A DNA stretch of 64,000 nt from Moniliella sp. 'wahieum' (Eukaryota). The notes beneath the pieces are model-generated. The model saw only the letters and a program-made list of their open reading frames with translations, made no database searches and had not been told where the DNA came from. The DNA is taken from NCBI GenBank assembly GCA_003971905.1, contig RSEE01000021.1:310001-374000 (forward strand), in the 5' to 3' direction. The position numbers were made by a program, and so were the translations under genes. Shown here in pieces: positions 1 through 63,039 of this stretch. Positions within the stretch are counted from its first letter, which is position 1; the number at the start of each line of letters is the position of its first letter.

Positions 1-775
1 CGAGATAATGACCTTTTGGGGAGCCGAAGCCATAAATACGCGACCCTGAGGCCGGCAGGGTCTGAGGCTGCTGGACCATGCACCCGGGCTGTACCTGCTA
101 TGTACGTCATGCATCAGTACTCCATTGCCTCTCTAGTTGCCAGAGGTGGAGGATGGCAGCGACGATTGCGTCACTAGTCACCCAGTCACTGGGCCCTGTT
201 GCTGGCTGGGCCCGCAGTGCCACCACCCACCACCGGCACCCCGCACCACGCTGAGCTCAGCCGCCAATCATCATCATCAATCACCACAATCACCAATCAA
301 ACGCATAATCACTAGATCACTCGCCAACATGCTCAAACGGAGCCGAGTGGCGTGGCGGGAGACCCGGTGACGGTGACGTGGGGCGTGGGAGGCGTGAATG
401 TGACTGGCGAGCCAAGCTGGCAGCTTCGCGTGGCTACCGGTGGCTGATGTCGATGGCCACGGGGGCAGTGTTGGGACGCGGTTGCCTTTGTCGCATGCCA
501 CGCCCGCCTCCCTATCCGTCTCTGGCTGCGTCAGCGGCATCCCATCCTCCCCGCCTCGCCTCTCCCGCCCGCTGTCCTGCGCCTCCGCCCGCCGAGCCAA
601 GCCATCGCCCATCTCGCCCGCCTCGCGCCCGCCCCCGCCCGCTTCTCGCCCGCTCTTCGCCCCCGCTATTTTGGGCCTTCGTATATATCTGTCCGCGTCT
701 CTGCCCTCCCTCCCCCCACCGACCGCTTCTTCCCCCGTCTTTCTTCCTGGCCTCTCCCTTGCCCCAGCGAACAAC

Positions 776-2085
776 ATGGCTACTGCAATCTCGGCCGCCC
801 CTGCGCCATCCGACGCCCCTCCCCGTCCGCAAGTCCCCTCCTAACAATAACCTCACCTCCGCCGCCGCCGCCCACGCCAACTCTTCCCGCCCCTCGGCGG
901 CAAACCACAGGACTGCTGCCGCTCCTGTGTCATCAAAGCCACCCACAGCCGGCGGCTGTGTCCGCCAGAACCTCGTGACCCGTACTATGGCTTTGGACGT
1001 ACGTTTTGCCTCCTTTTCCTTGCCCCCTCCGCCATCACCGTGCTGTCTGTACACTGTGCTTGAACCCGAGTTGCTGACCGTAGTTCGTGATGCATGGTGC
1101 AACAGGCATGTCCCTTTTGTCGGAGCGGTTGATCAACATTCTCTTTGGTTGTTCCAGTACCAGTACGGAGAGGCCTCCAGCGCCCTCGGAGGCTGGATCT
1201 GCACAACGTCCTGTGCCCCCGCCTCTTGCCAAATTTGTGGCGTATGCGCTGTACCGCACCCGCTTGCCCGAAGCAGTAAGCTACCACGCCCTGTACCTGC
1301 TCATGCGGTTGAAACAGTACTTCCCGCAAGCACGCGGCACGTGTGGCCACTCGCTTTACATTAGCGCCCTGATGTTGGCCAGCAAGGCGCTGTGCGATGA
1401 CACGTACAGCAACAAGAGCTGGACCATTGTTAGCCAAGGTCTCTATTCGCTCACCGAGGTCAACCATATGGAACGCGAACTGATTGGCTTTCTCAATTAC
1501 AATGTCAACGTCGACCCGTTCCAGTTGCACCAATTTATCCAAGCGCTTTCCCACCCCTCTGTCGACTTGGTCCAGTATCTCCACCGGGCTTGTATTGCGC
1601 GCTCTTGTGCCTCGCCTTTGCCCCCAAGCCCTGCCACGACCGCATCGGACCTGCCATCCTCTCTTTCGGAGCGTTCGCAGCATGGCGTGAGCTGTAGCCC
1701 GGCGGCGCGCTGCGAGGCTCTCTCGACCCAACCTGCGTGTGGCGCATCGACCCCACCGTGCGCGGCACAAAGGGAATCCAACCCGTCACACCAGCCAGTC
1801 TCTCACCTACTACCGCTGTGAAGCTCCTTGCTATTACCCTGCCGCACCGCCCCCCGCTGCCTTGGCCCATCACATTCCTTGGTCCACGATGCAGAGTGGG
1901 AGTTGAGCATGTCGGAGATGCCGCGCCTGTCGTGCTCTTCGGCAGCCAGCAGCACTTCGGGACTGAGCAACCTGGAAATGCTCTCGCCGTTGGGGCACCA
2001 GGCCGTCGTTTCGGCACCGCACGTGGCCGGATATCCCGCGCAAGGGCTTGCCAACGCTGCGGTCCCAGCTGCCAAATCGCCTTAG
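776..2085 (+). CDS. Pho80/Pcl/Clg1-type cyclin (cyclin N-terminal fold), intron ~999-1083
   Basis: Core FVAYALYRTRLP...HSLYISALMLASKALCDDTYSNKSW...EVNHMERELIGFLNYNVNV in ORF 1087-1821; TATATA at 683 and ATG at 776; GTACGT...CTGAC...TAG intron; low-complexity tail split by indels, so the end is approximate. Confidence 0.85.
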
Positions 2086-5000
2086 CCTACGTCTCCATAT
2101 GCCGCATGGGACCCCAGCAGGCATTCCCTCGACTTGGACCCAGATCGCTGGGCATCTCGTCCGGATCAACTTTGCCTCGTTCCTGGGCACCCATACGTTG
2201 CCTCACGTATCGATGTTCTGCCTTTCATTACCCTCGCACTGCGCCACAAAAACAAACGTCGTACAGCGACCCTCAGCACTCGCATGCCAAGAACTGGTTC
2301 CCTTGGTTTTGCTGAGGCTGTTTGCTTTTCCCTGTTGCGGAGCAGATGGGCACGACGGTCGGTGTCCCTTGAGCCTTTGGCGCACAACACAAACGTTGTC
2401 CGTTTGCACAAAGCCGGTGGGAAGGCATGGCGGCCTCCATGAGGGGGAAGGCAACCATTCGTGGCTGTTTTGCCTTCTTTCCCAGTCGGCCGGGCAGGCA
2501 TTAGCATCGTGCTCCGTGCCCCACGTCTCATGCCTCATGCGCCGCGCCAGGCTTCCATGGCAGGTTTGCGTCGTTCGCGTTCGACCGGCGTGCCAAGTCG
2601 ACGGGCCAAGTCGCCTTGTGGCTCTGCGTCGTCCTCTTTTGGTCTGGGCGTGTATGGCGAACGAGGTGCGTGGCACAACCCACGCTCCTTACGTGCTTGT
2701 GCCCCTGTCCGTGTCGCATATCAACTCGGCAGGAGCAAGCGCGGGCTGGCTACCTCTGCCGGAAGCCATCCCAACGGAATCCATTTCTCAAAAACACTGT
2801 ATATGCAAGTGAGTGTTATGGAGAGACGATACAGGTGCGCTGCTGGAGATGGTGATAGTACGATCTATATGTTTGGGTGCAATGAGCCTACTTAGAATCG
2901 ACACCTTGGAGGGTGGATGGCAAGCGCGCCAGATCCCACTTATCGGACGGCCTTGCCGCGCGAGGGAAGCGAGGGCAATGCACAGAATAAACATATGCAT
3001 CCATGATTTGCGCGCCCTCAGTGCATCAGGCATGCCGCTCAGCGAAACAACAGGCACGCTCGCCGTGCAGAGAGGGTGGGGGCCAAAGCGGGTTCTCTCA
3101 TCGGATCCTGTTCCCCCAGCCTTGCTTCATCTTCGCTCTACCCTTTCTGTTGTGGGCAAGTGCGGTGGGCCTGCCTATTATGGACGAACGTTCGCGAGAG
3201 GATTGACGTTCGTATGTGCCCCGGCAGACTGCAGTAGGAAGAAGCGAATGAAGCGAACGAAAACGACACAGGAACGCATCGTCGTCACTTGACCAGCTTG
3301 ACCCTCCCCCATTGAGGGTGGTAACGGGAGTACCGCGAACCACAACAGTGGCGTCGCCATGTGGCACGCGAGGAAGCCACGCGATGCCTTTTCGGGTTTC
3401 CAGCCGGCCACCGTTCGGCCAGAAGAGCAAGTAGGGTGAGTGGCTCGGCATAAACCACGTGTGCACGTGTGCACTTCCTCCCATCGTCGGTGCGCTCAGG
3501 TGTGTCTCCCTGTTGGTCTTGTCATGTCGGCGACACAGGAAAGCAAGACGCCGACACGGATCAGGACGTCGGGGTAGAGACATGCGCTGCACGGCATCTT
3601 TGTTGTACATATTGAACCGTCCTGGGTTTCTGTCGCCTCCAGCCTCCACAGGTTCAAGCCGCCGGCCGAGCGTCAGCGCGTCAGCCTTGAAGGTGCCCTT
3701 CCGTCAAGCGAACCACAGAAAGTTCAGAGGAGAACGCTCGGCCAGCGTTCACACTCCCAGCCTACGCACAACTGATTATGTTCCGTCAGCGACCTCTCCC
3801 ACTCCGACCTTGTCCTTGCATTCTCGTGTCATGCATGTCAATGTCACACATAGTTGGAGGAAGTATACAAGCGAATGTAGAGGTGGGCCCAGGAGAGTGT
3901 GTAATAGTAGTAGCCACGCAGATGGGGCTTGTTGTGCCTGGTGCCAAGGGTGGAAGTGGGCAAAGATGTTGAGGCCGCTGTGCTCCCTGTCAGAACCGAG
4001 TTCGGACTTGTCTTTGCCTGTCGGGGTGCTCAGGACGGGGGAGCAAAGAGAATGTGTTGCTCACGATCCGCGAGAGAATCGTCCAGACGAACGCGGCCTA
4101 TAGTTCGGTGGCTGACGTGCCGCAACAGTGCCACAACGCCCAAGTTATAATCGCGGCGAGGCGAGGAGCGTAATCCCCGGTAACCCCGCCCGCGCCAATT
4201 CACCGCGGCGCGTCAGCCTGACAGCTCACGCTGAGCCCCCGGAGTGTAAGCCAGCTTAGCACCACTGCATTGCGGCCAAAGCCATCGTCTCGGAGGCGGA
4301 GAGGGCGGGCTTGGGTTCTGACGCCTCTCTGATGTTAACCTGGAATGACGCATGGGCCAATTCGCACCAGTGCTATGAAAGGGATGATTCGATGATGATC
4401 CGCTGTTGCTTGCCTGCGCTGTGCATCATGCATCGCTGTGTGCGTATTGCCATGGCGCTAGGACCTCACTCACTCAACACAGGAGAGAGGCGTCTGGCGA
4501 GACAGATAGATGACATCTATCGCCGGCACCGACCCGAACTAGCGTCAGCGTGCCATCAGCGGGATCGTGGTTGAGAACTGCGGCGGTCCGATACACCCGA
4601 GTAAGCCAATCTGTGGGCACTCGTCGTGCTCATTCTGATGGTCCGTGCACAGCTGGAACGGCGGACGGCCTGAAACCAACGGCAGGCGTTTGGGTGGGGC
4701 GATGCTTTTGCGTTTGCTCGAAGCTTGAAGCGTCTAGACGAGATGGCATCTGGAGGCCAGGGCGCTGGAGCAGCTTGAAATGATTGAAACTTGCCATGCC
4801 CGAATAAGCTTCACGCGTCACGCTAGGCGATGGAGTGGATCCACGGGTGATCAAGGAGTACTAGCTACTGATGATATCGAAGACTGAGCGCACTGAGCCC
4901 ACGGCATACGTGGGCGCACGGGCCACCTACTTTGCCGTGGAAGACCGCGCATTGCATCTCAGCAGTGTGGGACAGTGCAAGCATCGTGCATCGCCGGGCT

Positions 5001-6121
5001 GCGAGAGCAGCAGTGCGCCCCGCCAGCCCCATGCGACGCATCGCGCGAGCGCACCCATCCCGGTGCCATCTGCCCCTCTCTCTCGGTGTGGAAGGACACA
5101 TAATTGGACATTACATGTGCCCAGGTGCCAGTCCGACAGGTCAACCTTGTCACGCTCCCCACGGCTTCTCTAAAGATCTGGGTGAGGCAGCAAGAAGCGT
5201 GAGATCTGAGACTGAGATCTGGGAGGCTACCTGCCCGGGGGGCGGTGTCATGCCGCTCATGCCATGCCGTGTGCCGTCATCTGCTTAATATTAATCGATC
5301 ACATATCGGCAACCCCAACGAGACCAGTCCCGTCTTCCGCTGTTGACCGTTGACCCCACAGCCCAGCGCTGCCCCCCCACCAGCCCCAGCCACGGGAGGC
5401 CCAATCCCCAGTCGCCAGCAGACACAGCCCCCGGTCCGCCTCCTGGCCAACGTCAGATCCGCCGACATGCAGCTAAGTACGTGTAGGCCTCCGTACCAGC
5501 CCGAACCTGCCGGCTCCGCAGTAACGCCGTTCTCAGCAGCCCGAGACGCAAGCGCCCAAGCACCCACCCACCCATCTCTTTTCTCCACACACCCGCCCCG
5601 TCCGTCACCAGAGCTCCGTGCCAGCATGGATCCTGGGCCAGCGACCCATGATGGATGATAGATGATGAATGACGCGGCGACCACCCACACAAAGCTCGCA
5701 GCTAGCAACCAGTGTAGCCACCTGTACCCGCGACAAGGCGCCTCGCCGGCCTTTCCGCGCTTAACCATATCCACGCCCCATGTGCGCCCAGGCCACCGCC
5801 CTGCTGCCTGGCGGTATACTGATCATCCATCACCGGCATCACACCCCGCTCGCTGCTCCATCGGCTGACATGGATCCCCCCAATGAGCACGGCGTACTCA
5901 GTGGCTCGGGGGCTCGACGGCCTCTGCGTCGCACAGTGCACTCGTGCCCCCCCGCCCGGCCGACGTAGCACTGCGCGCCCACACACCTCTTGCGCTCTCC
6001 CTGTTGGCGTACTTCCCCGGGCATATATAACCCGACGTTCTTCCCCCCTTTCCGTTCTTCTCCTCACCCCCCCCCCCCACACACACCTTCACCTCCCTCT
6101 TCTCCTGCTTCTTCCCCCACC

Positions 6122-10136: not shown

Positions 10137-10335
10137 ACATGCCCTGTAACCCTACCGCCCCCGCCCGACACCGGCTGGGATGGGTGCACTGCAGCACGGC
10201 GGCTGGGATCACATGCATGGTCACATGCCGCGTGTGCGTGCTGCAAGTGCGAAGTGCGCATCCTCACACACTGTGTTGGAGGTCAAGTGCAGCTGCATGG
10301 CGGTGGCCAATTGGATGCTCGCACAGAAAGGATGG

Positions 10336-10359
10336 TCACCGGTCACCGGTCACCGGTCA
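10336..10359. repeat. Tandem (TCACCGG)3-TCA array, example of the TCA-palindrome-TCA motif
   Basis: Direct reading; upstream of the PP2C gene; same unit at 17321, 22284 and 46536. Confidence 0.9.
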
Positions 10360-11572
10360 CTGATCTTGCGCGCGCTACGCTGTCCCCGACGTTGGTTTCC
10401 TGTGTATCCCTGGGTGCGATCCGGGAGGTGGTGCTTCGTTGCGTGTGGGTGGGATTTCGGCGCTGTTTGATGGAAAAAAGTTAAGTCCTGGGGCCATCTG
10501 CATAACGGGTCTGAGCTCACCACGAACTAGAGATCTCTTCCTCGGCAGCTCCATCTCGGGCAAGGGTCTGCACAGAAATGTGGTTGAGTCCCACATCACC
10601 GGCCTCTCCGTCATGATGCATGAGCGCCATGAGCGCAGGAGTGTACAAGGTTCCACTCAGGCCGCCGTAACTAGCTTAACTGTGGGCTAAAGCTGTGGTA
10701 CTCTGGTCGTTGCGCTCGTCGGATGATAGTGCCACCGAATTGTCACAGTATCCATCATGTGGCATTAGTCGCCTCGGGCTCGTTTACCTTTCTCTTTCTA
10801 GGTTGCCGTCATGGCCACCGCACCACGCTCTTCCTCGTACCCCGTTCTTTTCGTCTATTGCGTTGTTGCCCGTTTAATAGTTCCCTCGGTCCAGTGCTTC
10901 AGCAAAATGGATCGTGGTTTTCTCCCCCACACGGTCCATTTTGACGTCTTCATCCTACAAGGGAGTCACAGAGTATAGCGGGAGCGGATTGCTGAGACCC
11001 ACAGGCTTCAATGGGACTCGCAGCCTCAGTGCAGGAGTGTCATGCCACTTGCTATTGCTTGTAAGCAAAAGGAGCACTCTTTTACTGTTCTTTAGTACTG
11101 CGGTAGTCTTCATATATTCGCAGCATGAAAAGTAGACTCGGACCTCTACGTAAATGTGACACACGTGCACGGGAGAGAAAATGGTCGACACAGTATAGAC
11201 ATTTGACGGCACAATCAACAATCAACATCACCGAGAGATATAAAGGTGAAGAGGAGGGTCGACAATGAGGTGAAATTGACACAAAAAAGTATATAATATA
11301 AGAACAAGAAGCTACCCTAGTCGGACGAGAGAAATCGAACAATCCACTGACCAAGGCACGGCTGGTAGTAATAAGAAAAGGGAGGCCTGTCGGCGTCCGC
11401 CCTCATTGTACAGCGCCTAGACATACGCCACCAACATCTGGGTTGATACCTGGGACGGCTGAGTCGCACCTTCGGATCCTAGCTCATAGCGAGGCACCTG
11501 GAAAGCGAACCTTTATGGGCAGAATAAGTGCCCTCTTGGCAGCCGTAATAGAGGGGAAAGGTAGGGGCCTTT

Positions 11573-15870: not shown

Positions 15871-17715
15871 GAAGAGGAAGGTGGTGGTGGGGGGGAGGGT
15901 GGGGAGGACGAGGGCGAGCACCTTGACTAGCTATGTGGCAATTTGGGCTGCCAGCTGCGCTTTTGCTTATGGACTAAACCAAGTTGCGCGCATTATATGC
16001 TGAGGCGCCAAATAAGCTTCTACCGTTTGGTGCCTCTTACTAGCGCAGACGAGAGAGAAGAGGCCTGCACTGCACAAGTCACATCATCCATCCACCTCTG
16101 CACAGCCACTGAGGCAACACAGGCGCTCTCTGGCCACAGAGGCAGGGAGGATGGGTATGTGGTTTTGGATGTGTTTTCAGAGAGAGAGAGAGCAGCTCTG
16201 TGGCGGGGGGCACATCAAACCAGCGAGGCCAGTACTCTGCCTTGTGCACGACCAACAATGAGACAGGCGCACTCCGCAATACTGTTCGCGCTGCGCTCTA
16301 GTGCACATCTACGGCGTCCTCTTCGCCATCGCTCGTCTCTCTCTCGCCATCGCGCATTTTCCCTTCACAGTGTCGCCGTAGTGGCCTGTGCGTCCATACT
16401 TTTCTTGCAGCAAAAGTGCTCTGGTGTTGCCACATATGTCACTGCTGCACAGTGCTGATTGCGGCGGGGCGTGCTTGCAGTTCGGTTTGTGCGCACCGAA
16501 GGGCACATTCGCACTCGCGCCCAGCCGTCCTCACCACCGAGACAGGTGCGCCAGGGAAGAGATGTCTCGCCCAGCAGTCCCTTTTACACATGCTCCATCG
16601 CACGGGGCGAGTGTGGTGCGTGTGCTGAAGCTTGAGATCATGAGGGTGGCGAGAACAGCGGGCAATGGTGGTCGCAGCAAAAGGCAGATGCGGAGCAACT
16701 AATGACTACAGTGGCTATTCCTGACTATAGTCAGCGGCTATATATACGGACTAGGACTATAGTTCCTAGCTAGGAAGGCCGGATGCCCAGGCGCTGTCCC
16801 AGTGCGTGGTGGCGCACTGTGTCAGCCTCACAAGCTGTCCACGGACGTCGCAAACCCCGCGACAGGCACAAAGATGCAACTTTCAAAGCGCGGTATATTG
16901 TCTTGCTTGAGGATGAGTGGGGGTTGTATTTTTGTCCACAGAGAGCGCTGGCTGCTGTTCTCTTCGTCAGTGCTCTGGGTGTCCCCCTTTGACTGCTCCC
17001 AAAGACGAACCCGCTTACTAGCGACTAGTGGTCTCTGCGTCAGCACCAACACGATGGCAATCGCGGCGAGCAACACGCTGCTCACGCCGGATGAGCGAGC
17101 TGGTACGGCGCAGCATTTCCCTCGCTCTCCGAGAAAAAGTGTGATGTTGATGTGAAGGTACTCCATTGGCAGTGGGAGGCGTGCAGCCCAGAGGGTGGGT
17201 GGGCCTCGTCGCAGCACACTGGCCGCACGCCCCTAGCATCCAAGCTATGCTGCCCCCCAATACAGCTAAACCTCCTCCCTGCATGTTGCCGAGCGGGGTG
17301 GCCGGGGGGGCGGTGAGCAGTGACCGGTGACATCTGACATCTGAGACCTGGCATGTCTGACAAGAGTGACCACTTATCGATTATCATCCATGCATCACGC
17401 ACCATACATCGGTAATCAGCGCACACTGCCCCCCTGCTGGCATCCTGCTGCCCAGGTGCCCCACGGCGCCACTGTGTGCCATAAAGGCGCGTCTGGGGAG
17501 GCCCAGATCGGTTGCGGGTATGCCTCGCATACCCGGCACTGGCGCTCTGCCGCGGTGGGCGCCAGGCGGGCCCAGCAGTGCCCCGAGTGAAAGCGAGCCT
17601 CTTCGACCACGCCTGCTCCCTGACCGCATAAAACGCCTGCACGCCGCCATCTGGTCTTCTTCTTTCTCCCGCCACCGCCTATCTGCATCTCTGCAAACGA
17701 CACACAGCACCAGCA

Positions 17716-20638: not shown

Positions 20639-22343
20639 ATTCGTTAGTACGTTTGGCTTCTTTTCTGGCAGCATATACCGTCACCATGAACGTCTTCTTA
20701 TGACGGAGCTTTTTTGTTTCGGGGCTTGCTACCAATGACGGTAGAGACATTCCTGCTCGAATTGAGGCAGCAGTGGGTACTGCGGAGGGGGGTACTAGGA
20801 GAAGGACTCTTCCTTGCCGTTGGGTGCGCACGGAGTAGGGTGGGGAAGGGGCTCCACTCCCATATTGAGGAACGTGGACGAGCGAGGAAGACTGCACCGC
20901 TTCCCGTGGGTTCGTCTTCTGAGGGGAAAGACCGGTGGTGCCCTTCAGGGGAGAGTGTCGTTGCTCGCTGGCAGCCGATGAGATGCGTATTGGATGGGGC
21001 GAATCAGCAGGGAAAGTTGGGTCGTCTCAGTCATCTGCATATCGGAATATCATGGGGGTCCGTCAACATCGTCTGCTTACTCAGTCAGGGGAGGATATAT
21101 GCTTTTGATGCAAGGCATCTGCTTCTTTCTTGGCGGCCTTGGTGCAGGCGGGGTCGCCCTGTGATTGCCCAGGGAGATGAAGTGGCGCCCCCTTCGGACA
21201 CAGACTTGCGGTGGCGTTGTGCGTGTCTTCCCTGGAGGGTACTCGGTGGGAGCCTGGGAAGTGGGCGGATCGTTTGGGTACGGCGTAGCAGCCCAATGGG
21301 TGATGGAGGAGTGTAGAGGGAAACTCAGTCCGCAATAGGGCGCATTCTCGTCTTCGTCCGTCAGGGGGAGCGGTGTAGGCGGGTCCAATTCGACTTTGGC
21401 GTTCAGGGGCATGCATTAGCGCTGAATAAGCTTAAGGAACAGCCTATACGTTCCGTAGCGCGTGAGCTTCCAGCAGATGTGGTGGGAACCGGAGGGGAAG
21501 GTATATAGGGAAAGGGCCTCATGCTGTCCCCTTTGCCTCTAAGGGGGGAGTGAGAAGTTTATAGTCCACGCTCGTGCACCAGCCCAATAAGTGTGAACCT
21601 CTAGTACGGAAGAAGAGTCGATGTTTGACCTCTTAAGGGATTTTTGACAAGTGGTGTGCTATGGTCAGTGGAAAGGGAGTGTTTGGAGTGCTGAATAGTG
21701 CAGCAGTCTCACCCTCTTCGCTGGGAGAGGGGATATAGGGAATTGGGAGGGCATCCCTGTGGACACGCACACAGTGTGCAGAACAACACTCCGGTCAGTC
21801 CCTCGCTCAGCGGTGAGGCTCACCCCAGGAACACATGAAAGTCAAAAGATGAAAGTTAAATGAGTTGGGCTGTTGCAGGGCTACCGGCTACGGGCTTCCT
21901 CGTTCCGGCCAGTTTTCCAATTCTCCCTATCCCGGGTACCAGCGGCGAGGAAGACACCTTTTTTCGATGACAACACAATATGCCAGACCAACACCATCCC
22001 GTTTCATGCATGTGCGGCTTCTTTTCAGATGACACCTGCTCGCCTTTGCACCGGCTGGAGCTAGGGCCTGGCTATGAGTGGGCGCGAGCTCGCTGTCCGT
22101 GTCACACGTCTGTAATGATTCAATGCATCATCCATCCGAGGCTGAGGGGCTGAGGCGTGAGGCGCTGACTGAACTCAGCGCCCTCCGGCCTCTCGGGGGG
22201 CTGAGGCTTAGTGCTCCTCAGGCCCTTCGATGGTTCTACGTCCAACTGGGAGCTTGGGCGCGCAGCCCCAAAGGTGATGTCGATGACCGGTGACCGGTGA
22301 CCGGCCTGACCACACGTGGGTGTGTGGCCTGGGGGCGGGTGGA

Positions 22344-39227: not shown

Positions 39228-39662
39228 AGATCGTACCGCTCTTTTCCTTCTGGTCTTCACCTATGGTATATTGTGGCTCTGCGTGCTGGCCTCAGAACCC
39301 CATGCATCAAATAGCGAGGAACGGTGTATTTCGTGGTAGGCAACGTGATAAAAAAAGGCATCATCCGGGGGGGGTTCCATCGAGAGGCATCAGCAAGTGT
39401 GTCGTTAAGGGGTGGGGTGGTGAGGGAAATATACACGGCGTGTAGTAGAAGCCATCACTCAGATCGCGGTCGGGAGTGATGAGGGGAGAGGCAGAGGGTA
39501 GTAGGAAGACCATCAGGCAATGTTCAACGTTCAACGGGTGAGCTGGGGTCGAGTAAGGAGCAACCGGAAAGCGAAAGATTTTTTGGGTATTCGAGATGTG
39601 AAAGTGAGAGAGGAGGGTTGGTGGGTCAACGCCGGTGAGTGTGTTGGCGCAGGGTATCTTTC

Positions 39663-46361: not shown

Positions 46362-47155
46362 GGTGATGGCGGGCAAAAGGGGGCCAGCAGCAAAGAGAAA
46401 AGACCGCAATGACGGATTGTGAGCTGCGCCATGGGCAATGGCCTGTGGACTGGACAGCAAGCTACTGATTGAGCCGAGGGGGCGTGAGCGGATGTTGCAA
46501 TTGTGTTGGGCACGTGACGGCAGCGACGGGCGAGGTGACCGGTGACCAGTGAGTTGTCTCCCATGGCTCATCTCTCTTTCCTTCGATCTCTATGCCCTTC
46601 GCACGCCCAGGCGGCGTGGCGGCGTACCGCACACGCATGGGAGGGCCCCTGTCAGCGTAATGGGGAACCCATTCGTTAGGAGTGGGGGACGAGCACATCC
46701 ATTGTGGCGGAGGCCTGGCATGCGAGTACATGCGCCAGATGGTATCACCCAGGGTGGGGCCGGGGCCGAGGCGGCAGGCAGGCAATGGCCAGTCTGCTTT
46801 CCGCCCATCGGCGGAAATGGCCTGGGCGAAGGTGATGAATATGTGATGTGCTCCAACGTCGTTTATTTGGATTGGGGTGCGCTGGGATGCCTGAGCCTCA
46901 GGCCCCTAGCCTCAGCGGGCCTCGGTAGGCCTCGGCGCCCCTCGGGCCCGACCTAGGTGACACCAGCTCAGCACGAGGGCAGTGTGCCAGGCGTGCCCGG
47001 TTTGGCAAGGGCCCTCTCCCCCCAACCGACACCTGGCTGTGCCGCGCATCCACGTATTCCGCGCGAAGAGCTCAGGCTCAGGCTCAGCGCTAACCTTGGC
47101 CTGGCCAACCGCACCCTCCGCTTCACCCACCACCAGCATTCTTTTCTAGCCCCCC

Positions 47156-48262: not shown

Positions 48263-48876
48263 AGGGGCAGCCGCAGCAACCTCGAAATGGGTGTGCCATG
48301 CGCTCTGCTCAGCTGGGCGTTGAGGGGACTATGCGGTCCGCCGAATACGCCCGGACGTCGGTGTACGGTGCCGCAAAGTCTAAACACTCGTTCCGAGCTG
48401 TTTGCCGTCGATAATCGATGTGACGTGTGACGCTTGCTTGCAGCTCGGATGATGGCATGCCCCTGACCGGCCTGATCAGGAGTGGGAACGCAACGGAAAG
48501 TATCGGAATAAGGAGGCTAGCTGCATGGATGGGCCTCGTGTATATCATGCACCGCATGCATCCAAGGAAATACATCATCGACATCATCCATTGTGCATCA
48601 GTGTAACAGTGTGGTCTGCGTCTGTGGTCTGCGTCAACTCCAAGAGTTGTGACAGTAGTCTGAGCCATCAAAACATACAACAGACCAGTGTTGTTTTTTA
48701 GCCACAGAAGGGTGACTCGAGTGTTTGGCTAAGGTCCCCGTCAGTCTCTCTCCAGGCTTAAGACGGTACAGCCTAGCTCCTGGTGGCGATTGGCTGCTTG
48801 ATACCCGTCTGTAGGTCTTGCTGCTTGGCTTAGATCCCCACCACTGCTAGTGCGATTGCATCACCCTGGATGACCA

Positions 48877-48900
48877 TCAGATCTCAGATCTCAGATCTCA
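48877..48900. repeat. Tandem (TCAGATC)3-TCA array, example of the TCA-palindrome-TCA motif
   Basis: Direct reading; same unit at 5200, 31887 and 62852. Confidence 0.9.
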
Positions 48901-50795
48901 GAGGACTCCACTGAGGTCGCATCAATTGCAGAGCAGTAGTAGGCTCGTTTGCCCCCTTTGGTGTGGCTTGAAGTTTGAAGCTGATGGCTATTGAATGCTT
49001 GCCAAGTCAGGTCCTGATCCTGCCACAGGCCCCAGGATAGGATGCAAAAGCACACAGCGATTGATTCGCGGGGGCGGAAGAGACAATAATGCGTGGTGGA
49101 AAGGAAGGAGGGAGTGGGATGATTGACGGTCGTCGACAATCCAGCTCCCCAACTTATACTTGTGCGAGGCGGCCCCGTTCCGCCTCTGTTCCGCCCCTGC
49201 CCCGCCCCTGCCCCGCCCCTTCCTGTTGCCCCTCCGGCCGCCTTCCCCACCGTTGTATCTCCCTTGCTTGCCCCCACAGTACTATCCCCGCACGCTGTGA
49301 TGCATGATGTTGGCATGCAGGAGGATCGATACGGACCACAGGTAAGCGATAATCGATAACTGGATAACTGCCACTGCTGTTGGACACAGCAGACACGTCG
49401 TGTAGTGCTTGAAGCTTGAGTGGACTCGGGGCTGTCCCGCTGTGCACTTATTCATGCCATGCATCATAACCATACCCCACAGGACCTCCCCCTGGGCCAA
49501 CATGCCAGTGAACGTCACGCGTCAGCTTTAAGGCCCCCACGAGGAAGTAGCCGTTTGTCATTAACGTGAGTACGTTGAACGATACGTTGAACGTTCAGCT
49601 TTAGTCAACTAGCCGACCACACGCAAGAAACCGATTTTTCTCACGCTCCTCAGTTGCTCCGGCACGCGTCATTAATAGCTCCGCCTCGATAGCCGACGGG
49701 TAACGCGTTCGCGTAACGGGTAAATCCAGTGAACGTATGGCAGGTATAGTGAGTAATGCTGCTTACTGACATGATAGTACGGAGGGACTGAGTACTGCAG
49801 GAGTCTCAGGTGTGGGAATGTCGTCGAACGTCGAACATCGACGCCGAAAATGCTGCCCCCATTGTCTTTCCGAGCGTTCGGCTAATCGATCAGCGCCAGC
49901 ATCCAATTGTGAGTGCCAGAGCAGCGCTCAGGCGCTCTGCACTGATACTGTACTTAGGGCCTTTGGGAGCCAACGTTACGCGCCATAGCTCATCGCGTCA
50001 TACGTCACGCGTCAACGCGACGCTCAACGCGCGCTCCAACGTTCGACATGATCAACGTTCAATAGAAGGTACTGTGCCCCCCGCCGCGAGCCAAATGAGA
50101 GTTGCTCGTGCGAGCGTCCACAGCGGGTGCGGTCTACATTCCCGCGGCTTGGCCATCCTACTTCTCGGATTGTCCTTTATTGCCCGTGTCACCTGGTGCC
50201 CCACAATCCCCCGTCCATTCGTCAGGGAAAGCCCAGGTCACATGTCATGTGTCACATACCACACCCCTGCAGGGGTGGTTATATGCGCTCCGAATCGACC
50301 TACTCACAGAAACTCTGATGCGTCTTGAGTTCGCGCTGTACTCAGTTACCTCTCAGCTTCACCGTCTTCAACTGCTTCAAGCTTCCGCATCGCACGTAGA
50401 TCGGTGGGCTGTGCAACGCCACAGTAGCTTGGTTCTGATGCGGCGATGCGATACTATAGTGATGGCATTATCACCTAGAGGACTGCATCGTTTGCTCACT
50501 AGCACGGGAATAGGTTCAACCTTCGGATGCTGCTGTTGTTTCAGCTGCTCGACTCGCCCTCCTTTCCTCTCAGGCTGATCCTATCCAACGATCACAGAAT
50601 GAACAGGTCATGTTGACAAAATTTTGAGGATTCTGGACTGCTGCCGGCGGCTTGCGCAGTCGGAATGTATGGCTTTGCGGCGACTGCTCCCCATTCCAAA
50701 TCCGTGCATTCCCTACCTCAATGACGATCCCCTATACATTGCCAATCCTCCCTGCCCTGCTTGCTCCTTACCACCAACATCTTAGAGGGGCAGTC

Positions 50796-51834: not shown

Positions 51835-53469
51835 CACCTCTTCAAGACATACCCACTCGTCCGGCCGTGCCTCGTCGACCCAATTTCACCGCCGTCCACT
51901 GACTGCCACCGGCGGACTTTTCATTGGCTGAACCACGGCCTGCTAATACTGTTTTTCGTCTCTGCTCATCGACATCGATCATCATCTTTTGCTGCCTACC
52001 GTTTTCCCCTCCCGGGATGTGGACTATGCGTACAAACCACCACCAAGCACCCTGTAAATACTCAACTGTCACACCTTCATTCATCCTTTCATCCCTATCC
52101 GTCCCTCAATAACATGTAACACCCTCACATCTGCCCAGCCGATCTTGTTTCTATATTGCCCCACCGTTACATCTGGCGTAGCACTCGGTGGCTATAGGTG
52201 AGGGTGAGGACGATCAGTCTCTGCTTGTCAAATGCGGCAAGAAAAAGGTCGAAGACAAGTGGCATGTGATGCATGTCACATGCGATAAAGGACAGTATGT
52301 GACATGGGGATACCAGGGTGAAAGGGTTCCAGCGTGGAACGGTGGCTACGGTGGCAAAGGGGAACGGTGGCTAAGGTGGGGACGCAGCTGCTGCGTACCG
52401 AGCCGGGGCGAAGCGCCAACAGACCGGGCCGTCGACCCGGCGGTCTCCTCGTCTGGGATATGGAACAACTAAAAGTTAAAAACGAGAGAAGATCAGCTTC
52501 AGCGGGACAAACGGTGAAAATGTGGGACAGTAAGCTTTTGTCACATGTCATTGGAACCGGCGGGGCGATAGAGTTTCATAACTATGACGTTGCTACACAC
52601 CTTCCGACCCATTTGGCTCTGCCCCCCCTCCGATATTTTGGCATTGCTAGTATTGCCCGATGAGATCATGCAGATCATGAGAGGGAAATGAAGCGTGAAT
52701 GTGAGATGGACTTGTGCCAGACGTGATGCATGATGTGCATGATGTGCCTGATGCATGTTGGTGTAAGCAGAGGGTGCATAGGGAGGGGGGGGGGCATGTG
52801 AAATCCCGACCAGCGTGTAACACCGCATGAGAGGGCTGTCGTGAGTTCGAAGAGACCAGGTCTCTTCCCCCTCCGCGCGTATGAACATGGTACGGTGTAT
52901 TATGAGTAGGTTATCTGTGCGAAAATGGTTAATGGCCACGGACCCAAAGAGGTATAACCGCGTATGTGATTACGGCCGCAAAAATTATAGAACGTGTCTA
53001 ATAGATCCGATAAGTCTCTTCAAGCTTCAAGCTTCATAATCAGTGCACGCGATGAACGAAGATGAACACTAATCTCTCTGTGCGTGGTCGGCACATATTG
53101 CAGGGAAAAGAGATGTAAGCCAAGAATATAAAAGGCGAGCTTTTTGGTAGAACTAAGCACAGACTCTATTAGAGACCCTATAGGCCCTGTGGCTGCTCCT
53201 AGGACCCCTAACCAGGACCCCATAAGCGGATGAGAGACATCGCCACCTGCGGGGTGGGGTGATCACGGTGTCTGGCACAGCTGCGGACAAATTAATGTGT
53301 ATCTCGTTGACACAGTGGAACCGGCAACGAATATTTAACGTTTTGCACACAGCGCAAACCCTTGATCAAAAGTGGGGGCCGTCGGACAACATGAAGCATC
53401 CACCTCCACCTGCACCGGTTATACCTCTTGTCCCACCCTGCTGTTTTCTGTCATCTTACTTTCGGAGAT

Positions 53470-54503
53470 TGACGCGAAGCAGGCTGCTGGTACGGTTCCC
53501 TTTGCCAGTACGCCTCTGGGTGCAAGCGATCCGTATATCAACATCCGGCACATCGACGCTGAGCGGGTAGGTTTTATCCTCAAGGACTGTGATCTTTCCT
53601 ACGTCAATTGGCTTCGCCGTATCATGGTCGCAGAGGTGTTAACTACTGTTGCCATTGATCAGGCTTGATATCAGCGAGAACACTTCACAGCAATCCCAGA
53701 TGAGTTCCTGGCTCATCGAATGGGCCTCATCCCTCTCATTTCGACCGACACGGATAGTGCCCTGGTGAACGCGAGTGTGAAGAAGGATGCTGTGAGCGAT
53801 GCACGGCCGAATTGACGCTTCACGTGCGATGTTCCCGTTCCCAGCGGGCTACACTCGATATGACCACTGCCGACTTGATTCGATCCGCTCCGCTGGGTGA
53901 GCGGTACCCGGGAGACCCAATGATGAACAGTGAAGGTCCCTTTCCTTCTATACCCCCAACAAGCACCCTGATTTTGCTAAGCCTACGTCCCAAGTAGGTA
54001 TGGCGTAGCCTGCAGTGTTGATTGCCCGCATGGCTCCCGGTCAGGAGCTTAGGCTGCGTTGCTTGGCCCGCAAGGGCTTTGCCAAGGAATACGCCAAAAG
54101 GTCCCCCGTCTAATCCATGGAACAAGCTCCACCATACTTCCTATTACTGATGGTTCGAAACATGGGCCGAGGAAGAATGGCCCTTGTCTCGCAAGCACAG
54201 TTTGAGGATCGACCCGACCCATATGTGCCATTTGACTTCAATGTCGTATAGTCAATCGGTTCCACTTTAAGCTTTAACGTGCAAACGATCGGGAAGAAGT
54301 TGTCGAGACGGTATGTCCGCCCGGTCCCTTGTTCCCGTCACTGATCCCTCCTGACTCGTTCTGCGTTTGTCCTACGCCATTTACAGGTACTTATCATTCT
54401 CGAGCCCCGCACTTCCAAGGTAAGCGAGGGGCTGGGGGTGCAGGGGCCAAATATGGGCATGAACGGGAATGTTGGCCTCAACACAACGTATGTGCCCACA
54501 TGA
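53470..54503 (+). pseudogene. RPB3: Decayed copy of RNA polymerase II subunit Rpb3
   Basis: LRRIMVAEV, PDEFLAHRMGLIPLIS, CEEGCCERC, GQELRLRCLARKG, PWNKLHHT, WPLS; conserved-site substitutions, multi-codon deletions and stops. Confidence 0.75.
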
Positions 54504-55234
54504 TCCAGCCGAACGGATACGCGAACGGTCAAATAGTAGCGTTCGCTTGGATGGTTGACGTGGGCTCGCGGCTGCTGCTTCCGATCCTCCCCTTGTATCG
54601 GTAGTTCATATCTCAAAAATTATGCTTGTTGTGCAAGACAGCGCGGGCTGCTCTATTGCAAATACGTTTTGAGAAGGAAGAGTGCATTTCAGGAGAGGGT
54701 GTGTCCGACAGGCGTAATGACACGCCGACCCATTGCATGTGCAAGCACACGCGGGCCAAGTGCAAAGTGATGCTTGGCGAGTATGTTCTGGGCCACGCAT
54801 GAAACTCATACACCAGTAGGAAGGCTGGTGACGAGCGATTAATGGGTCCTTTGGCTGTCCTGAGAGAAAGGGAGGTGGGAAATGGAAAAAAGGATAGAAA
54901 GTTTAGCACCGCAAACATGCATTCCAATGCACGACTTGGGACTGGAAAAGAGCTGGCTGATGAGGTTGCTGGATGGCGAAGCCGATGGTGGTGGTTGTCA
55001 AAAAAAGAAATGCCTCCTTCGTGAAGCTGGCATAAACAGAACGAAACTGCAGCCTCCACTGGCGGAACCCAAGGCGGAATCGCCCCGTCACGTGATATTA
55101 TGTACAGCATTGAATATTGATTGGATCCGGCACCCGCAACTCCGGCCGTGCCATTAGATTACCTGGCCCTGGCCCATCTCCGCCGATAAAAATCCACCCT
55201 CCATCAGGCGAAGCTTCGAGCTTCCTTGTCCGAC

Positions 55235-56329: not shown

Positions 56330-57415
56330 GACCGGAAACAACATGACACTACTGCGCTCAACAGGGCGGGGCGGGGCGACACAATGAGATTAATGACGGA
56401 TGTAACGGATATGCTGATGTTTTCGTCCCCACGAAAATATGGGAGTACAAGTACCCGCCGGTTAAAGTAGGCGCAGGCCTGGGCGAACGTTTAACCGGGA
56501 GGAGACGCGTATTATATCCGCACCTATGGCTGTGTGGTGTGGCACAGCGGCATCGCCTCCTCGAGAAGGCGAGCTGTGAGAAGAAAGCCCCAACTCCCAG
56601 AAACTCGTACTCATCCTAGATCCGTGTTAAGATCTAGCCCCTGGCAATGCCTACGCGGGGTGCACTGCCGCGCCAAACTGCCAAAGAGATACCACAAAGA
56701 ATTAGCCGCGAAGAGGCACATTAGGGAGATGGACAACACCGTTTTTCCCGCCATGTTCATTCGCATCTCGCATCCGCTGGCGCTACATCCCATTTGGAAA
56801 ATGAGAGTGGCGAGACCCAGCAGAACGCCCTGACTTTTGCTGGCGACGCCATTGCAATGGCCTTCTATAATTGGTGTTTGCGAGCGTCATCAGGAAACGC
56901 GGTGCGAGCGCTCGCAAAGCTGGTGGGGGAAGTTGCCACAAACGATGTTGATGTGGATCCTTAGCAGGGGGCCGCGTCAATTGGTTTGTGAAGCTGAGGA
57001 GCTCTGGCGCTCCGGTCTGGGCGCCAGACCACAGAGGTTCAGTTGGTTGAGTAAGTGCGGGGACGGTGCAAAGCGGTGATGTCATACAAGGTCCTACACT
57101 GCCCCCAGGCAGCATTGTGGCCGGAGCGGGTTTAGCAGCGTTAGACCCGCTGTCTCCGCCCTTGCCTGGGGCCAGTGTCGGTATGAGCCCGAGGTGGCTG
57201 GGGGATTTGTCAGACCGAATGTAATCGATAATCGGCCACCGGCAGAAATAGGCCGCGTGCCGTGCTGGTCCGTCCCCCAGCGAGTGGCCCCAGTGCTTCC
57301 GCCTGCTGCCCCCAGACCGGCTGCGGAAAAGATCAGAACGATCAGTGCCGCCGGGTACTTGGTACTTAACTCCCACCCACCGCTGCATACCCCCTCCACT
57401 TCCCAACCACCTATC

Positions 57416-58920: not shown

Positions 58921-60440
58921 AACCGACCACCGCAACTGCCCTCGTCCCTACCCCCGCAGCCTCCCCTCGCCGATGCGCACCTGCCTCTGTCGCCCACCAC
59001 ATGTAATGCTCCATTGTCTCCTTACTGCCACAACGTCCCTGAGGCCTGACTAGTGACTCGCGCCCGATGGGGGGGGGTACGTATTACATCCATGTTCCCC
59101 AATTTTTCAAGGCGATAATAGCGAGGCGAGGGGCATGTGGTTGGGGCATGCCCCTCCCATCGCCTGGGACAAGGACTGAAACTGTGATGAGAGGTGGATG
59201 AGGATAGTGGTAGTGTGCCCGAGTGAGATGGGCGTCATTGCGATGGAGACGGTGATGGTGCATTTGAGAGAGCAAGGTGTTGCAGTGAGATCGGACAGGT
59301 GAGTGTGCTGAGGGAAGGTGGACACGAGTAGAGTGGTAAGGCCGGTAATCACCAACCCCCCCAGTACCGATTACCGGCAGGTGCTAGTTGCTCGCAACCA
59401 GCTATCGGCCGCTGCGGGAAGCACCAACTGCCGTAGCAGGCCATAGCTGGTACACTAGCGACGCCGATACGCAGCCCGACAGTCAAGCCCAGGACGATGC
59501 ACACCCTCTGTGCGCCGAGGGGATTTGGGGGACGCAGTAGCACTGCTACGCAGTAGACGCAGTTGGCGCAGGTGGCACACCCATCACGTGATGACGATGC
59601 GACACTCCCCCTCTTGGAAGAAAGGCCGCGTGGCGCAGGCGCAGCGGGCGCAGGCTCTCCTCAGATCGCCAGTTGCGCGTGGCGGCGCACTGGGTCTGGC
59701 TGTGCCCCACTGCCTCTCCGGCACAGCCGAGCTCAAGACGGCCCATCCGGCATGCCGGGCCATCCGCACGCAGTAGAGCGTAGAACGGCGTAGTACGGCC
59801 TGGCGCATCCGGGCACAGCAGCACACCGCCCCAGCTGTGGCGCCGTGCCCAAGGGCGACGATGGGCCAGCCGGCCAGCCGCGGAGGCCAGGAACAGGCAC
59901 TGCGCCAGTCACAGCTGAGACATCGGCGCCGCACCCCCAATGGCTGGCGTTTTGATCCCTCGCGAGCACAAGGCACGCCACAGCGGCAGTGTCGCGTGCG
60001 ACTGCGAGCACATACATATATCCACCTGCACACCGCCCCCCCGTTCTTGTCGGAGGGCCCTGGCTCTGCCGGGGGTGTTTTGGTGCGAGCTGGTCCGAGG
60101 TCTGTCCGGTCCAAGTGGGGACACAGCAAGCGCCACTCCCTCTCTCTCGTACTCCTATGTCCTTCATAGCCTCTCCAACCAAAGCCAGGGGTGCTAGGGT
60201 TGGCGCCCTGCGCCTTCTTATGCCCTGCCCGCCCTTCCGAACCTGCCTGTTCCACCACCACCACCACCCTTCTGGCCCGCTCTGAGAGTAGTAGCCCCCC
60301 CCCACCTTTCCATCCTCTCCGCCTACCCCCGTCCTGGTTGACGTCTCTCCCCCCCTATCCCCTCTGCACCGATAATAGGAAAGCCCATCCAAAGCTCAAC
60401 TGCAACCCAAGTTTCTCCTCTTTCGTCTTCAACTCCAACA

Positions 60441-61684
60441 ATGAAATTCACCCTCTTCTTCCTCACCACCCTCCTTGCCCTGACCCAATCAGCGCAGGCG
60501 CTCCATCTCGGCCTTGCCTGGGCCGCCAACAACCAATGGGCCAATGAAATGGTCGGAAACCCATCCATCAACAGCTATCACCACTGGGAGGTGCGTTTTC
60601 TTTCTTTCTGCTTACTCTCTCTCTCACTAGCCGCTGACCGTAATCGATCATCCGTCGTACCGTAGATGGGCCATGTTCCTGAGCTTCTCATGCTGGTCTC
60701 CAGTTTGTGCCCACTCGTTGGGGGTACAAGAAGAACCAAGACTGGCCTCGTCTGCGCAGCCTGTTCCCCAAGTACCGCTACCCCTATCTTTTGGCCTACA
60801 ACGAGCCCGATGTGTCGTCTCAGTCTGACTACTCGCCCCAGGACGCTGCGTCGGCTTTCCAAAGCGAGCTTGCTCCCTTGCGGCAGTACGGTACTCGGAT
60901 CTCGTCGCCACAGATCTGCTGGAACGCCGACTGGCTTGAACAGTTCACCCAGACGCTCTCTAACCAAGGCGGATACTACGACTTTGTTGCTGCTCATTGT
61001 ACGTCCTCTAACCCTCACGCTTCGTTTTATATACCCACGTCGGACTATATTAACCTTTCTGTTTCTTGCGCAGATTACGGAAGTTGGCAGTCGATTGACC
61101 AGCTGAAGAGCTATGTACAGGGTCTCCACCAACGGTTTGGCAAGGACATTTGGATCACCGAATACGGTGTCACTTCCTCATCCAACCCGTCCGCGGCCCA
61201 GGCCAAGCAATTCATGATTGACGCCACCAATTTCTTTGCCTCGACTGGCTATGTCAAGCGTGCCTACCCCTTCGGGATGTGGGCTACCCCTCCCGACAGC
61301 TTTGGCTCGGCACAGAACGCGGTCTTCTTCCAGGACGGTAGTCTGCGCTCGCTGGGCAAATACTACCGTGCGTACTCGGCCTCGAAGCGTTCTCTTTCGG
61401 AGGCGGCGCCCCGTTCGCGCGTCATGCGCAGGCACCATAGTCTCCTTGCCCGTCTTGCTCAACCCGACCCGAAGGATGGCGAGAACTGGGACAATGTGAC
61501 GGTGACGAACCACTGCGATGAACAATGCCAAGGCCGTGCTCAATGGCTTGCCCACATCAAGGATGCTCCCGCGTTCAACGCGTCGGGCCGCGACCCGGCC
61601 CTAGACCGTGATTACAAGCCCACGGTGCCTATCGAGGCCTTTGTCGAGGAACCCATCCCCGAGTACGACGACAATGACTTTTAA
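60441..61684 (+). CDS. Secreted GH128 (Asl1-like) beta-1,3-glucanase; introns 60591-60665 and 60999-61073
   Basis: Signal peptide MKFTLFFLTTLLALTQSAQA; catalytic-type motifs LAYNEPD and IWITEYG. Confidence 0.88.
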
Positions 61685-63039
61685 AGTCACTTGTTAGGAT
61701 GCCCAACATCCTTGGTTGCCATTTGCGCCTGCGTTACCTTTCAGTTTTACCCGCGCCATGCCCACCCTCTCATCTGCGCTTCCCTCTCCTCCCCCCTCCC
61801 CTTTTTCTCTCTACCAGTTAGTTACGGTTCTACCTTCTGTTACGGGCCTTGTTATGGGTCACGCCCCCGTTCTCTTCTTCTGTACCCGTTCTCTTTTTCT
61901 GTACCCGAACTTTCTTTCCTTGTTGTGCCGGTCCTCGTCCATTGTACCCCAACTGCGTTGGGCTGATGGGACGCAGGAACGGAGCACGCCATATGGCTCC
62001 TGGTGAGCCGGTGGACTCGATGTGCTCCGTCACAAGCATCTCCCTCAATTACACTTCTTTCATGTTCCTTTGTCTTGTTGGGCTGTTAGTTACATCTCGT
62101 ATCATGCGGGGATAACTGTCTTTTGCGTTTTCGTCTTCTCCTGAGAGAAGTCTCCGAGGAAAACCTGTCAGACCTGATGCAGAGATTGTGGCCCCTGCGT
62201 GGTGTGTCTGCGCATTATTTTACCTGTCTGCTTCTCTTGGCTTGGCTTGTTTCTGTTGCCGCGTTACTAGTGACTCTCCGTTTTTTGAATCTCGAAGGTC
62301 CCTCCCTCCAACCGTGGATCAGCAATCAGATCTTCATTGCGCCTTGATTACATTTAGTTAGTAATTGCCTACAGACATCAGAAGCCCCTGTTATTCGTCA
62401 GGCTGAGAGGTCTGAAGATGTCTGTGCACCCGACAATGTACACCGATGCTCGGTCTTTGCGTTCCATTTGTAACAGCTGTGCTCACTTAGTTGGAGGTGG
62501 ACGGCCCCGGTAACGGTGGATAAGGCTCCGACTGTTGAGAAATGTACTCGATATATCCCTCCTCTTCTTTGACTCTGTCGTCCCGCACCTGGAACTGGAT
62601 GCGTTGTGCATGGCGTGAGGCTAGTCAATGACTAATGATGGCAAACCGATTATTCATTCAGGCCTCAGGAGTGCGTGTGGTGGTGCTTGTTGGTGGGCGG
62701 GGCGGGTAATTGCATCTGGATATTGATTCCAGATGGGGTGAGCGGCGAGCGCGCTGAGCAATGATGCCGGTGATGGTGGACCCAGGGAGCAGGGCGGCAG
62801 AGATGGCAGAGAGGGGGTCATGCATGTCAATATTCAATCGATGACGTTGGATCAGATCTCAGATGCGGCCACAATCTGAAAGGTGCACATCCCCCAGACT
62901 GGCGCAGTGCGGGGCGGGGCGGGGGCTAGGGTTGGCGTGCTGCGCATGCTGATGGGCATCGAGGAGTGCGGCTGCGTTGATGGCATCGATAGCTGAGATC
63001 AGAGATCTGATAACCGATCCCCGGCAGCTCTGCTCCACG

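Follow-up and report, generated by a model that had tools for sequence, protein, structure and literature searches.

The DNA analysed here is a stretch of 64,000 nucleotides from Moniliella sp. 'wahieum' (contig RSEE01000021.1, positions 310,001 to 374,000 of the forward strand; hereafter the window), in which a short non-coding motif, two TCA or two TGA trimers around a 4-bp palindrome, recurs between genes. The window has a G+C content of 58% and contains genes for a cyclin, a PP2C, a protein kinase, an amino-acid transporter, an Arf-type GTPase, SGT1, a chorismate mutase, a purine-cytosine permease, CCT7, a Fab1-type lipid kinase, a nucleoside phosphorylase, an SDR, a VWA protein, a cytochrome b2, a Glyco_hydro_cc protein and a bZIP protein. 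The top named matches of the CCT7 exon belong to Ustilaginomycotina (Violaceomyces, 78%; Sporisorium, 77%; also Tilletiaria, Tilletia and Jaminaea), in line with a basidiomycete of smut type as the host, and one protein without a name reaches 89%. A copia-type long terminal repeat (LTR) retrotransposon with RVT_2, rve and Pol_BBD domains occupies 22344-27596 on the minus strand; its LTRs of about 210 bp have TG..CA ends and differ by two single-base indels, and the target duplication is 5 bp (GTGGA). The motif and its variants are present at about 48 loci in the 64 kb, or about 1 per 1.3 kb, and all of these are non-coding as far as they can be mapped. They lie 5' or 3' of genes and in either orientation, one is located in an intron of CCT7 and one abuts the SGT1 stop. 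A first-pass annotation, made from the sequence alone, had already placed the motif outside coding regions and noted the contact with the SGT1 stop, and in agreement with it no locus falls within a Pfam-matched stretch.

Counting of TCA-N4-TCA and TGA-N4-TGA on both strands of the window gave 77 sites, and the spacer was palindromic in 39 of them, whereas Markov simulations predicted 1.8 (order 1), 1.5 (order 3) or 4.2 (order 5) palindromic spacers. The first-pass annotation had described two TCA copies in a 7-bp register with a symmetric spacer of any sequence; this description is correct and withstood all three tests by which it was to be refuted, the palindromic share is above about 1/16, and all 35 units listed by hand were recovered at their positions, although four had been overlooked (16626, 38283, 49410 and 55111). 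Among 32 trimer classes, palindromic spacers made up 39/77 for TCA/TGA and 5/13 for TAA/TTA, followed by 8/66 for ATG/CAT. When spacers of 0-30 nt around TCA/TGA were scanned, a palindrome excess was found only at a length of 4; the palindromic fraction was 5/23 at 2 nt, which is chance level, 0/65 at 6 nt and 0/33 at 8 nt. In this check of other spacer lengths and flanking trimers, which had been proposed with the motif, the effect is confined to T-N-A trimers and a 4-bp spacer. Hexamers consisting of a 4-bp palindrome between A and T occur 227 times, with TC..CA flanks in 25 cases, TG..GA flanks in 14 and the next commonest flank pair in 4. As only the first two flank pairs stand out, a general excess of such hexamers, which had been considered earlier as a possible source, is not the cause. 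Metagenome relatives were retrieved via the CCT7 exon, and the closest is 73% identical in CCT7, which is too distant to align orthologous intergenic DNA, so that the metagenome loci serve as a negative control only: in 80 unrelated eukaryotic metagenome loci (658 kb) the spacer was palindromic at 10/378 sites, without excess.

The repeated unit is longer than the 10-mer. At 33 TCA/TGA loci, the run of bases that match with a period of 7 bp was 5 bases long at 15 loci, 6 at 6 loci, 4 at 3 loci and only the bare 3 at 3 loci, and as it peaks at 5 bases the unit is a 12-mer of which the 10-mer is the core. Two mirror forms are found, TNAab-b'a'-TNAab and b'a'TNA-ab-b'a'TNA, and in both of them half of the palindrome is the inverted dinucleotide that stands beside one of the trimers. 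When A/T-centred trimers are included, 38 T-N-A loci are obtained, of which 34 contain a single unit and 4 are arrays. Of the 34 single-unit loci, 14 have a palindrome that matches the dinucleotide of the right flank, 10 match the left flank, 2 match both flanks and 8 match neither, which means that 26/34 show a match where about 5 would be found by chance. The palindromes are even, being 4 bp long, or 6 bp when A..T is counted. The loci are listed below with strand '.' throughout; they are called putative scars because we favour an origin by transposon excision, and P nt stands for the P nucleotides that this origin would involve.

107..116: putative scar TCA-TGCA-TCA, core only, no flank match
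170..181: putative scar TCA-CTAG-TCA, core only, 1+1 nt extension
308..321: period-8 variant ATCACT-AG-ATCACT, 6-nt repeat + 2 P nt
3288..3303: period-9 variant GGTCAAG-CT-GGTCAAG (minus-strand reading), full 7-bp duplication + 2 P nt
3671..3685: period-8 variant around G-TCA-GC, alternatively an exact 8-bp tandem duplication
4383..4396: period-8 variant ATCATC-GA-ATCATC (minus strand)
4811..4823: putative scar TCA-CGCG-TCA, right-flank match
4883..4898: period-9 variant ACTGAGC-GC-ACTGAGC
5200..5211: putative scar TGA-GATC-TGA, right-flank match
10334..10360: array of four TCA trimers and three CCGG spacers, 7-bp unit, 3.9 copies (Tandem Repeats Finder)
10612..10623: putative scar TGA-TGCA-TGA, left-flank match
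10619..10634: period-9 variant CATGAGC-GC-CATGAGC, also an exact 9-bp tandem duplication
16626..16635: putative scar TGA-AGCT-TGA, core only, absent from the earlier list
17320..17331: putative scar TGA-CCGG-TGA, core only, within a chain of TCA units (17314-17345)
17374..17385: putative scar TTA-TCGA-TTA, A/T middle base, right-flank match
22284..22304: array TGA-CCGG x2, 40 bp outside the copia LTR
27761..27774: period-8 variant TTCAAC-GT-TTCAAC, also an exact 8-bp tandem duplication
27790..27802: putative scar TCA-TCGA-TCA, right-flank match
27850..27861: putative scar TCA-CATG-TCA, right-flank match
31884..31896: putative scar TCA-GATC-TCA, left-flank match
32185..32195: putative scar TCA-ACGT-TCA, core only, abuts the SGT1 stop
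34212..34224: putative scar TCA-TCGA-TCA, right-flank match
38283..38292: putative scar TGA-ACGT-TGA, core only, CCT7 intron, absent from the earlier list
39522..39536: putative scar GT-TCA-ACGT-TCA-ACG, both-side match, full 7-bp unit twice
46534..46547: putative scar GG-TGA-CCGG-TGA-CC, both-side match
48573..48588: period-9 variant CATCATC-GA-CATCATC
48877..48902: array TCA-GATC x3
49298..49309: putative scar TGA-TGCA-TGA, right-flank match
49347..49359: putative scar TAA-TCGA-TAA, A/T middle base, left-flank match
49407..49419: putative scar TGA-AGCT-TGA, left-flank match, absent from the earlier list
49513..49524: putative scar TCA-CGCG-TCA, left-flank match
50003..50014: putative scar TCA-CGCG-TCA, left-flank match
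50052..50062: putative scar TCA-ACGT-TCA, core only
50237..50247: putative scar TCA-CATG-TCA, core only
52110..52121: putative scar TAA-CATG-TAA, A/T middle base, right-flank match
52539..52550: putative scar TCA-CATG-TCA, left-flank match
52664..52679: period-9 variant GATCATG-CA-GATCATG
52724..52735: putative scar TGA-TGCA-TGA, right-flank match
52729..52744: period-9 variant CATCATG-CA-CATCATG (minus strand), within a 3-copy 9-bp array
53018..53036: array TCA-AGCT x2
54265..54277: putative scar TTA-AGCT-TTA, A/T middle base, left-flank match
55109..55120: putative scar TGA-ATAT-TGA, left-flank match, absent from the earlier list
57222..57234: putative scar TAA-TCGA-TAA, A/T middle base, right-flank match
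59038..59058: putative two-scar chain, minus strand AG-TCA-CTAG-TCA-GGCC-TCA-GG
62658..62669: putative scar TCA-GGCC-TCA, right-flank match
62827..62838: putative scar TCA-ATAT-TCA, right-flank match
62852..62864: putative scar TCA-GATC-TCA, right-flank match

The distribution of these loci is uneven, as 17 of the ~48 lie in the gene-poor 6.8-kb stretch from 48.4 to 55.2 kb, where the G+C content is 52-56%. Between 48400 and 55200 no convincing Pfam match was obtained, the one match, to RNA_pol_L, being weak and under the curated cut-off. The clustering could reflect local hopping or simply the presence of more neutral DNA. In the chain at 59038-59058, the two palindromes differ and are derived from the outer flanks, CTAG from the AG on the left and GGCC from the GG on the right, and this is the pattern that two successive hits on one AG-TCA-GG site would give.

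An unbiased search for pairs of identical 5-mers separated by 2 nt that repeat the end of the 5-mer in inverted form gave 66 cases where 9.6 were expected, and in 44/66 the 5-mer starts with T-N-A. In T-N-A units around a 4-bp palindrome, the two trimers share their middle base (CC 25, GG 14, AA 3, TT 2; 44 units), whereas each mixed pair was found 1-4 times; a shared middle base is the outcome expected of duplication and not of two independent half-sites. Repeats of 6 nt and 7 nt around a 2-nt palindromic junction were also in excess (16 vs 2.4 expected and 9 vs 0.7 expected, respectively), and no 8-nt or 9-nt repeats with such a junction exist in the window. T-N-A is located at the offset predicted by nn-TNA-nn in 5/16 of the 6-nt repeats and in 6/9 of the 7-nt repeats. 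Exact 7-mers with a central T-N-A are repeated at a spacing of 0, 1 or 2 nt in 11, 5 and 7 cases and at background level beyond. The counts of 6-9-nt repeats, the middle-base pairs and the quasi-palindrome count given below were computed after the model had been formulated. What the sequence shows directly is a duplication of at most 7 bp centred on TNA and a palindrome templated by the flank.

Some further repeats stand beside these forms. Short tandem duplications of period 8 or 9 that lack T-N-A are also enriched (3456-3474, 34109-34127, 59864-59880 and others): period 9 with at least 7 matched bases was found 24 times vs 3.5 expected, and period 8 with at least 6 matched bases 31 times vs 15. 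They could be scars of other elements. The 14-mer TGATG-CCGG-TGATG, present at 5828 and 62762, has a 5-nt repeat around a 4-bp palindrome and is outside the main scar forms. The 9-mer CATGCATCA recurs at 1088, 17388, 39300, 49457, 52267 and 52749 and at the TCATGCATCA loci, the preceding base being C four times, A twice and T four times; it may be a separate motif or may represent decayed scars with a TGCA spacer.

A direct duplication with a sharp length limit, here 7 bp, is characteristic of a transposase that cuts its target in a staggered manner, and a flank-templated palindrome at a junction is characteristic of P nucleotides, which remain when a hairpin is opened away from its centre. 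Both features occur together here, and the motif is probably the excision footprint of a cut-and-paste DNA transposon that acted at some 48 positions of the window; the existence of this transposon, the hairpins and their point of opening are what we infer. First, the element would insert at NN-TNA-NN and duplicate these 7 bp, with C or G preferred as the middle base by about twofold (39/1909 of the available C/G-centred trimers and 5/576 of the A/T-centred ones are used). On excision, the transposase would leave both flanks covalently closed into hairpins, right where the element ends. A host nuclease would then open the hairpins 2 nt off the tip, generating 4-nt self-complementary 3' overhangs that consist of two original bases and their inverted copy. 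Finally, end joining would retain one overhang and trim the other, giving nnTNAab-b'a'-TNAab or its mirror image and a net gain of 7 bp per scar. As a gain of 7 bp shifts the reading frame, such scars would survive only outside coding sequence. Each scar would also add a second TNA target whose flanks yield the same palindrome, so that repeated hits, or slippage, would build heptamer arrays such as the four uniform ones of the window. That the palindromes are even fits hairpins formed precisely at the end of the element, which is the case for RAG, Transib and Muta1. As one of two possible origins, the first-pass annotation had proposed the footprint of a templated fold-back process, and this was close to the reading favoured here, since the palindromes have the form of P nucleotides, but a free-standing fold-back is not retained because the direct duplication points to insertion and excision of a transposon.

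These steps fit what has been published on other systems. The main site at which Artemis:DNA-PKcs opens a hairpin is 2 nt 3' of the tip, and 4-nt inverted-repeat 3' overhangs dominate (PMC2175297). In hAT, Transib, MULE and RAG reactions, flank hairpins are opened by host enzymes before end joining (PMC5499845). Ac/Ds scars in Candida and yeast contain P-nucleotide palindromes, and hairpin repair needs Pso2, a relative of Artemis (PMC5873905). In V(D)J coding joints, which involve RAG hairpins and Artemis:DNA-PKcs, the junction palindrome is likewise an inverted copy of the adjacent flank, and the 4-nt inverted-repeat 3' overhang that dominates in vitro (PMC2175297) matches the 4-bp palindrome of the window, which is of even length as expected for a hairpin at the exact boundary. 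In contrast to coding joints, the junctions described here separate the two copies of a duplicated 7-bp target; they belong to the germ line of a fungus and lack recombination signal sequences. Fungi employ Pso2 instead of Artemis:DNA-PKcs.

Comparison with known superfamilies reveals partial likeness in each case. PIF/Harbinger elements share the T-N-A target trimer, which is TWA in most families, but they duplicate 3 bp, whereas here the repeat is 5-7 nt long and the palindrome is templated outside the trimer; a 3-bp duplication gives neither palindromes from bases beyond the trimer nor 7-nt direct repeats. Elements of the hAT superfamily, whose target is nTnnnnAn, duplicate 8 bp, whereas the duplication here is 7 bp (8-nt repeats with a palindromic junction number 0 and the dominant period is 7). 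To our knowledge, neither Muta1, which is Mutator-like, nor Transib targets TNA. On excision, Muta1 and Transib form full-length flank hairpins, which fits the even palindromes, but the duplication of MULEs is 8-10 bp, whereas the upper limit here is 7 nt, and excision of Muta1 in yeast is more than 90% precise, unlike that suggested by the scars (PMC5499845). Ac/Ds (hAT) footprints in plants, yeast and Candida resemble the loci in retaining the target duplication, in their short deletions and P-nucleotide palindromes and in their repair by host hairpin opening and end joining; however, their palindromes are of odd length and have at their centre one base, which is the complement of the element-adjacent base (PMC5873905), and those of the window are centred between two bases. 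A Repbase paper annotates some hAT entries with a target-site duplication of this length ('7-bp TSD') and gives nothing further, and a paper on Tm1 proved irrelevant to the motif. Between Oryza sativa and O. glaberrima, 94 excisions were catalogued across the rice genomes, most with deletions or filler and only 8 of them simple, so that most of those scars are untidy (PMC4423477), whereas about 48 stereotyped scars would be present here in 64 kb. In the literature searched, no account of the motif was found, no paper contained the strings TCANNNNTCA, TGANNNNTGA, TCAN4TCA or TGAN4TGA, and nothing relevant turned up on a 7-bp duplication in fungi or on footprints in Ustilago or other basidiomycetes. 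The loci would belong to a known kind, transposon excision scars with P nucleotides, and would be unusual in their 7-bp TNA-centred target, their uniformity and their density.

If the excision reading is true, the window contains part of a natural archive in which a basidiomycete genome has recorded how hairpins were opened and ends joined, with possibly thousands of events genome-wide when the density is extrapolated, and in this archive the point of opening, 2 nt off the tip, hardly varies. A further implication would be a transposon of high mobility and low copy number whose target, 7 bp centred on TNA, is unusual. The motif would be given a concrete cause, and this matters because a motif finder or an annotator could take it for a regulatory element; the presence or absence of individual scars could provide markers for dating and strain typing. 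More tentatively, the agent might be an undescribed cut-and-paste element, or a domesticated relative of one, with a 7-bp NN-TNA-NN target and RAG/Transib-like flank hairpins at the exact boundary, which has hit about 1 site per kb of intergenic DNA. In that case the scars would be the most over-represented non-coding 10-mer and a main source of 7-bp indels, and they would reinforce themselves into heptamer arrays because each of them adds a new target.

Several observations weigh against excision by a transposon. A search of the window for terminal-inverted-repeat elements flanked by TCA/TGA or by a 7-bp duplication returned only chance-level candidates, none with a central T-N-A, and a general search for inverted repeats likewise gave only chance-level pairs. 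No transposase domain was detected in a Pfam scan of 261 open reading frames from the window, no dispersed repeat family is present in it besides the copia LTRs, and a search of the window against Rfam gave no match. The predicted product in which both overhangs are kept, TNA-pal4-pal4-TNA, was found 0 times in the window. The classes of loci with 6-nt and 7-nt repeats have only 4 and 6 members, respectively; in the former, of period 8, those at 3671 and 27761 are also exact tandem duplications, and in the latter, of period 9, that at 10619 is an exact 9-bp tandem duplication and that at 52729 lies in a 3-copy 9-bp array. A density of about 1 scar per 1.3 kb requires very many fixed cycles of insertion and excision, and the window on which the model is tested is also the one from which it was derived. 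We know of no described superfamily that combines a 7-bp NN-TNA-NN duplication with flank hairpins. No TNA-type scar was found inside the copia element at 22344-27596, which is young as judged from its nearly identical LTRs, and this suggests that the scars built up over a long time. Relatives of the motif with one mismatch are in moderate excess (20 vs 10-12 expected and 50 vs 29-40 expected), which fits neutral decay of old scars. Finally, ~48 loci in 64 kb far exceed the rice catalogue (PMC4423477).

Templated repair of double-strand breaks at T-N-A might have produced the same features without a transposon, for example if a host nuclease or a domesticated transposase made 7-bp staggered breaks whose ends were capped, opened and rejoined. 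This origin would be expected to give the flank-templated palindrome, the duplication and the TNA centre, it agrees with a 64-kb window in which neither an element nor a transposase was found, and the high and stereotyped density is atypical of transposon scars, simple excisions in rice being 8/94 (PMC4423477). However, the clustering of 17 of the ~48 loci between 48.4 and 55.2 kb fits local hopping, and integration followed by excision is the sole established route to a direct duplication combined with P nucleotides. As, moreover, no nuclease is known to us that would combine a 7-bp duplication with hairpin formation at one site, break repair of this kind is considered unlikely.

Target duplications of Transib are 5 bp long, and the dominant 12-mer can also be divided into two full 5-bp copies with 2 P nt between them. 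A Transib/RAG-like transposon with an oriented 5-bp duplication, TNAnn, and P nucleotides kept from one flank only would also form its hairpins exactly at the boundary, as Transib and RAG do (PMC5499845). Such an element would require an asymmetric target and one-sided processing, and TNAab combined with an inverted copy of the TN end was found in only 1/60. As it also leaves unexplained the 7-nt repeats with a central TNA (6/9) and the loci that match on both sides, we regard the 5-bp duplication as improbable.

The other origin proposed in the first-pass annotation was a binding site read by DNA shape, in which a protein would recognize two TCA half-sites 7 bp apart and a symmetric spacer maintained by selection. 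The strong enrichment, the non-coding location, often near gene starts, and the only moderate excess of one-mismatch variants would be in line with such a site. The spacer, however, is copied from the flank in 26/34 loci, exact palindromy has no rationale in shape, the trimers share their middle base while mixed pairs are not enriched, and A/T middle bases also work. The loci occur in either orientation, on the 5' as well as the 3' side of genes and once within an intron, and neither the class of 7-nt repeats nor the chain at 59038 is explained by protein binding, which is therefore unsupported and very improbable as the origin of the motif. Least credible of all are ordinary heptamer microsatellites formed by replication slippage, since in spite of four loci with arrays of 2-3.9 units and a general excess of short tandem repeats of period 7-9, 34/38 loci have a single unit, the modal repeat covers 5 of 7 bases, chains with differing palindromes exist and slippage predicts neither the palindrome nor T-N-A, so that it accounts for the arrays only.

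Other ideas were tried and rejected. Scars made of element tips (terminal 2+2 nt with a 3-bp TCA duplication) would need at least 11 families with different tips and leave the flank match unexplained, and P nucleotides arising from a 3-bp duplication would always give an identical spacer. A fold-back of the whole site, or a cruciform, is argued against by the scarcity of perfect 10-bp palindromes, which are not enriched (TCA-pal4-TGA and TGA-pal4-TCA, 2 loci each). A preference for targets that were already quasi-palindromic was dismissed because single 7-mers of the form xyTNAy'x' are not enriched outside the scars (159 vs 155-179 expected), and the symmetry must therefore arise from the event and not from target selection. 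In the case of a centred 9-bp duplication, the T-N-A offset in the 7-nt repeats would be wrong.

Two further kinds of sequence in the window stand apart from the motif. A 23-bp tandem repeat (15721-15887, 7 copies) and 15-bp repeats (12034-12200, 6-7 copies) lie inside long minus-strand open frames that have no Pfam match and probably encode repetitive proteins. ARAGORN made two tRNA-like calls of 97-98 nt, at 20543-20639 and 36391-36488 (Leu-taa and Met-cat), neither with an Rfam match at gathering score, and these may be intron-containing tRNAs or false calls.

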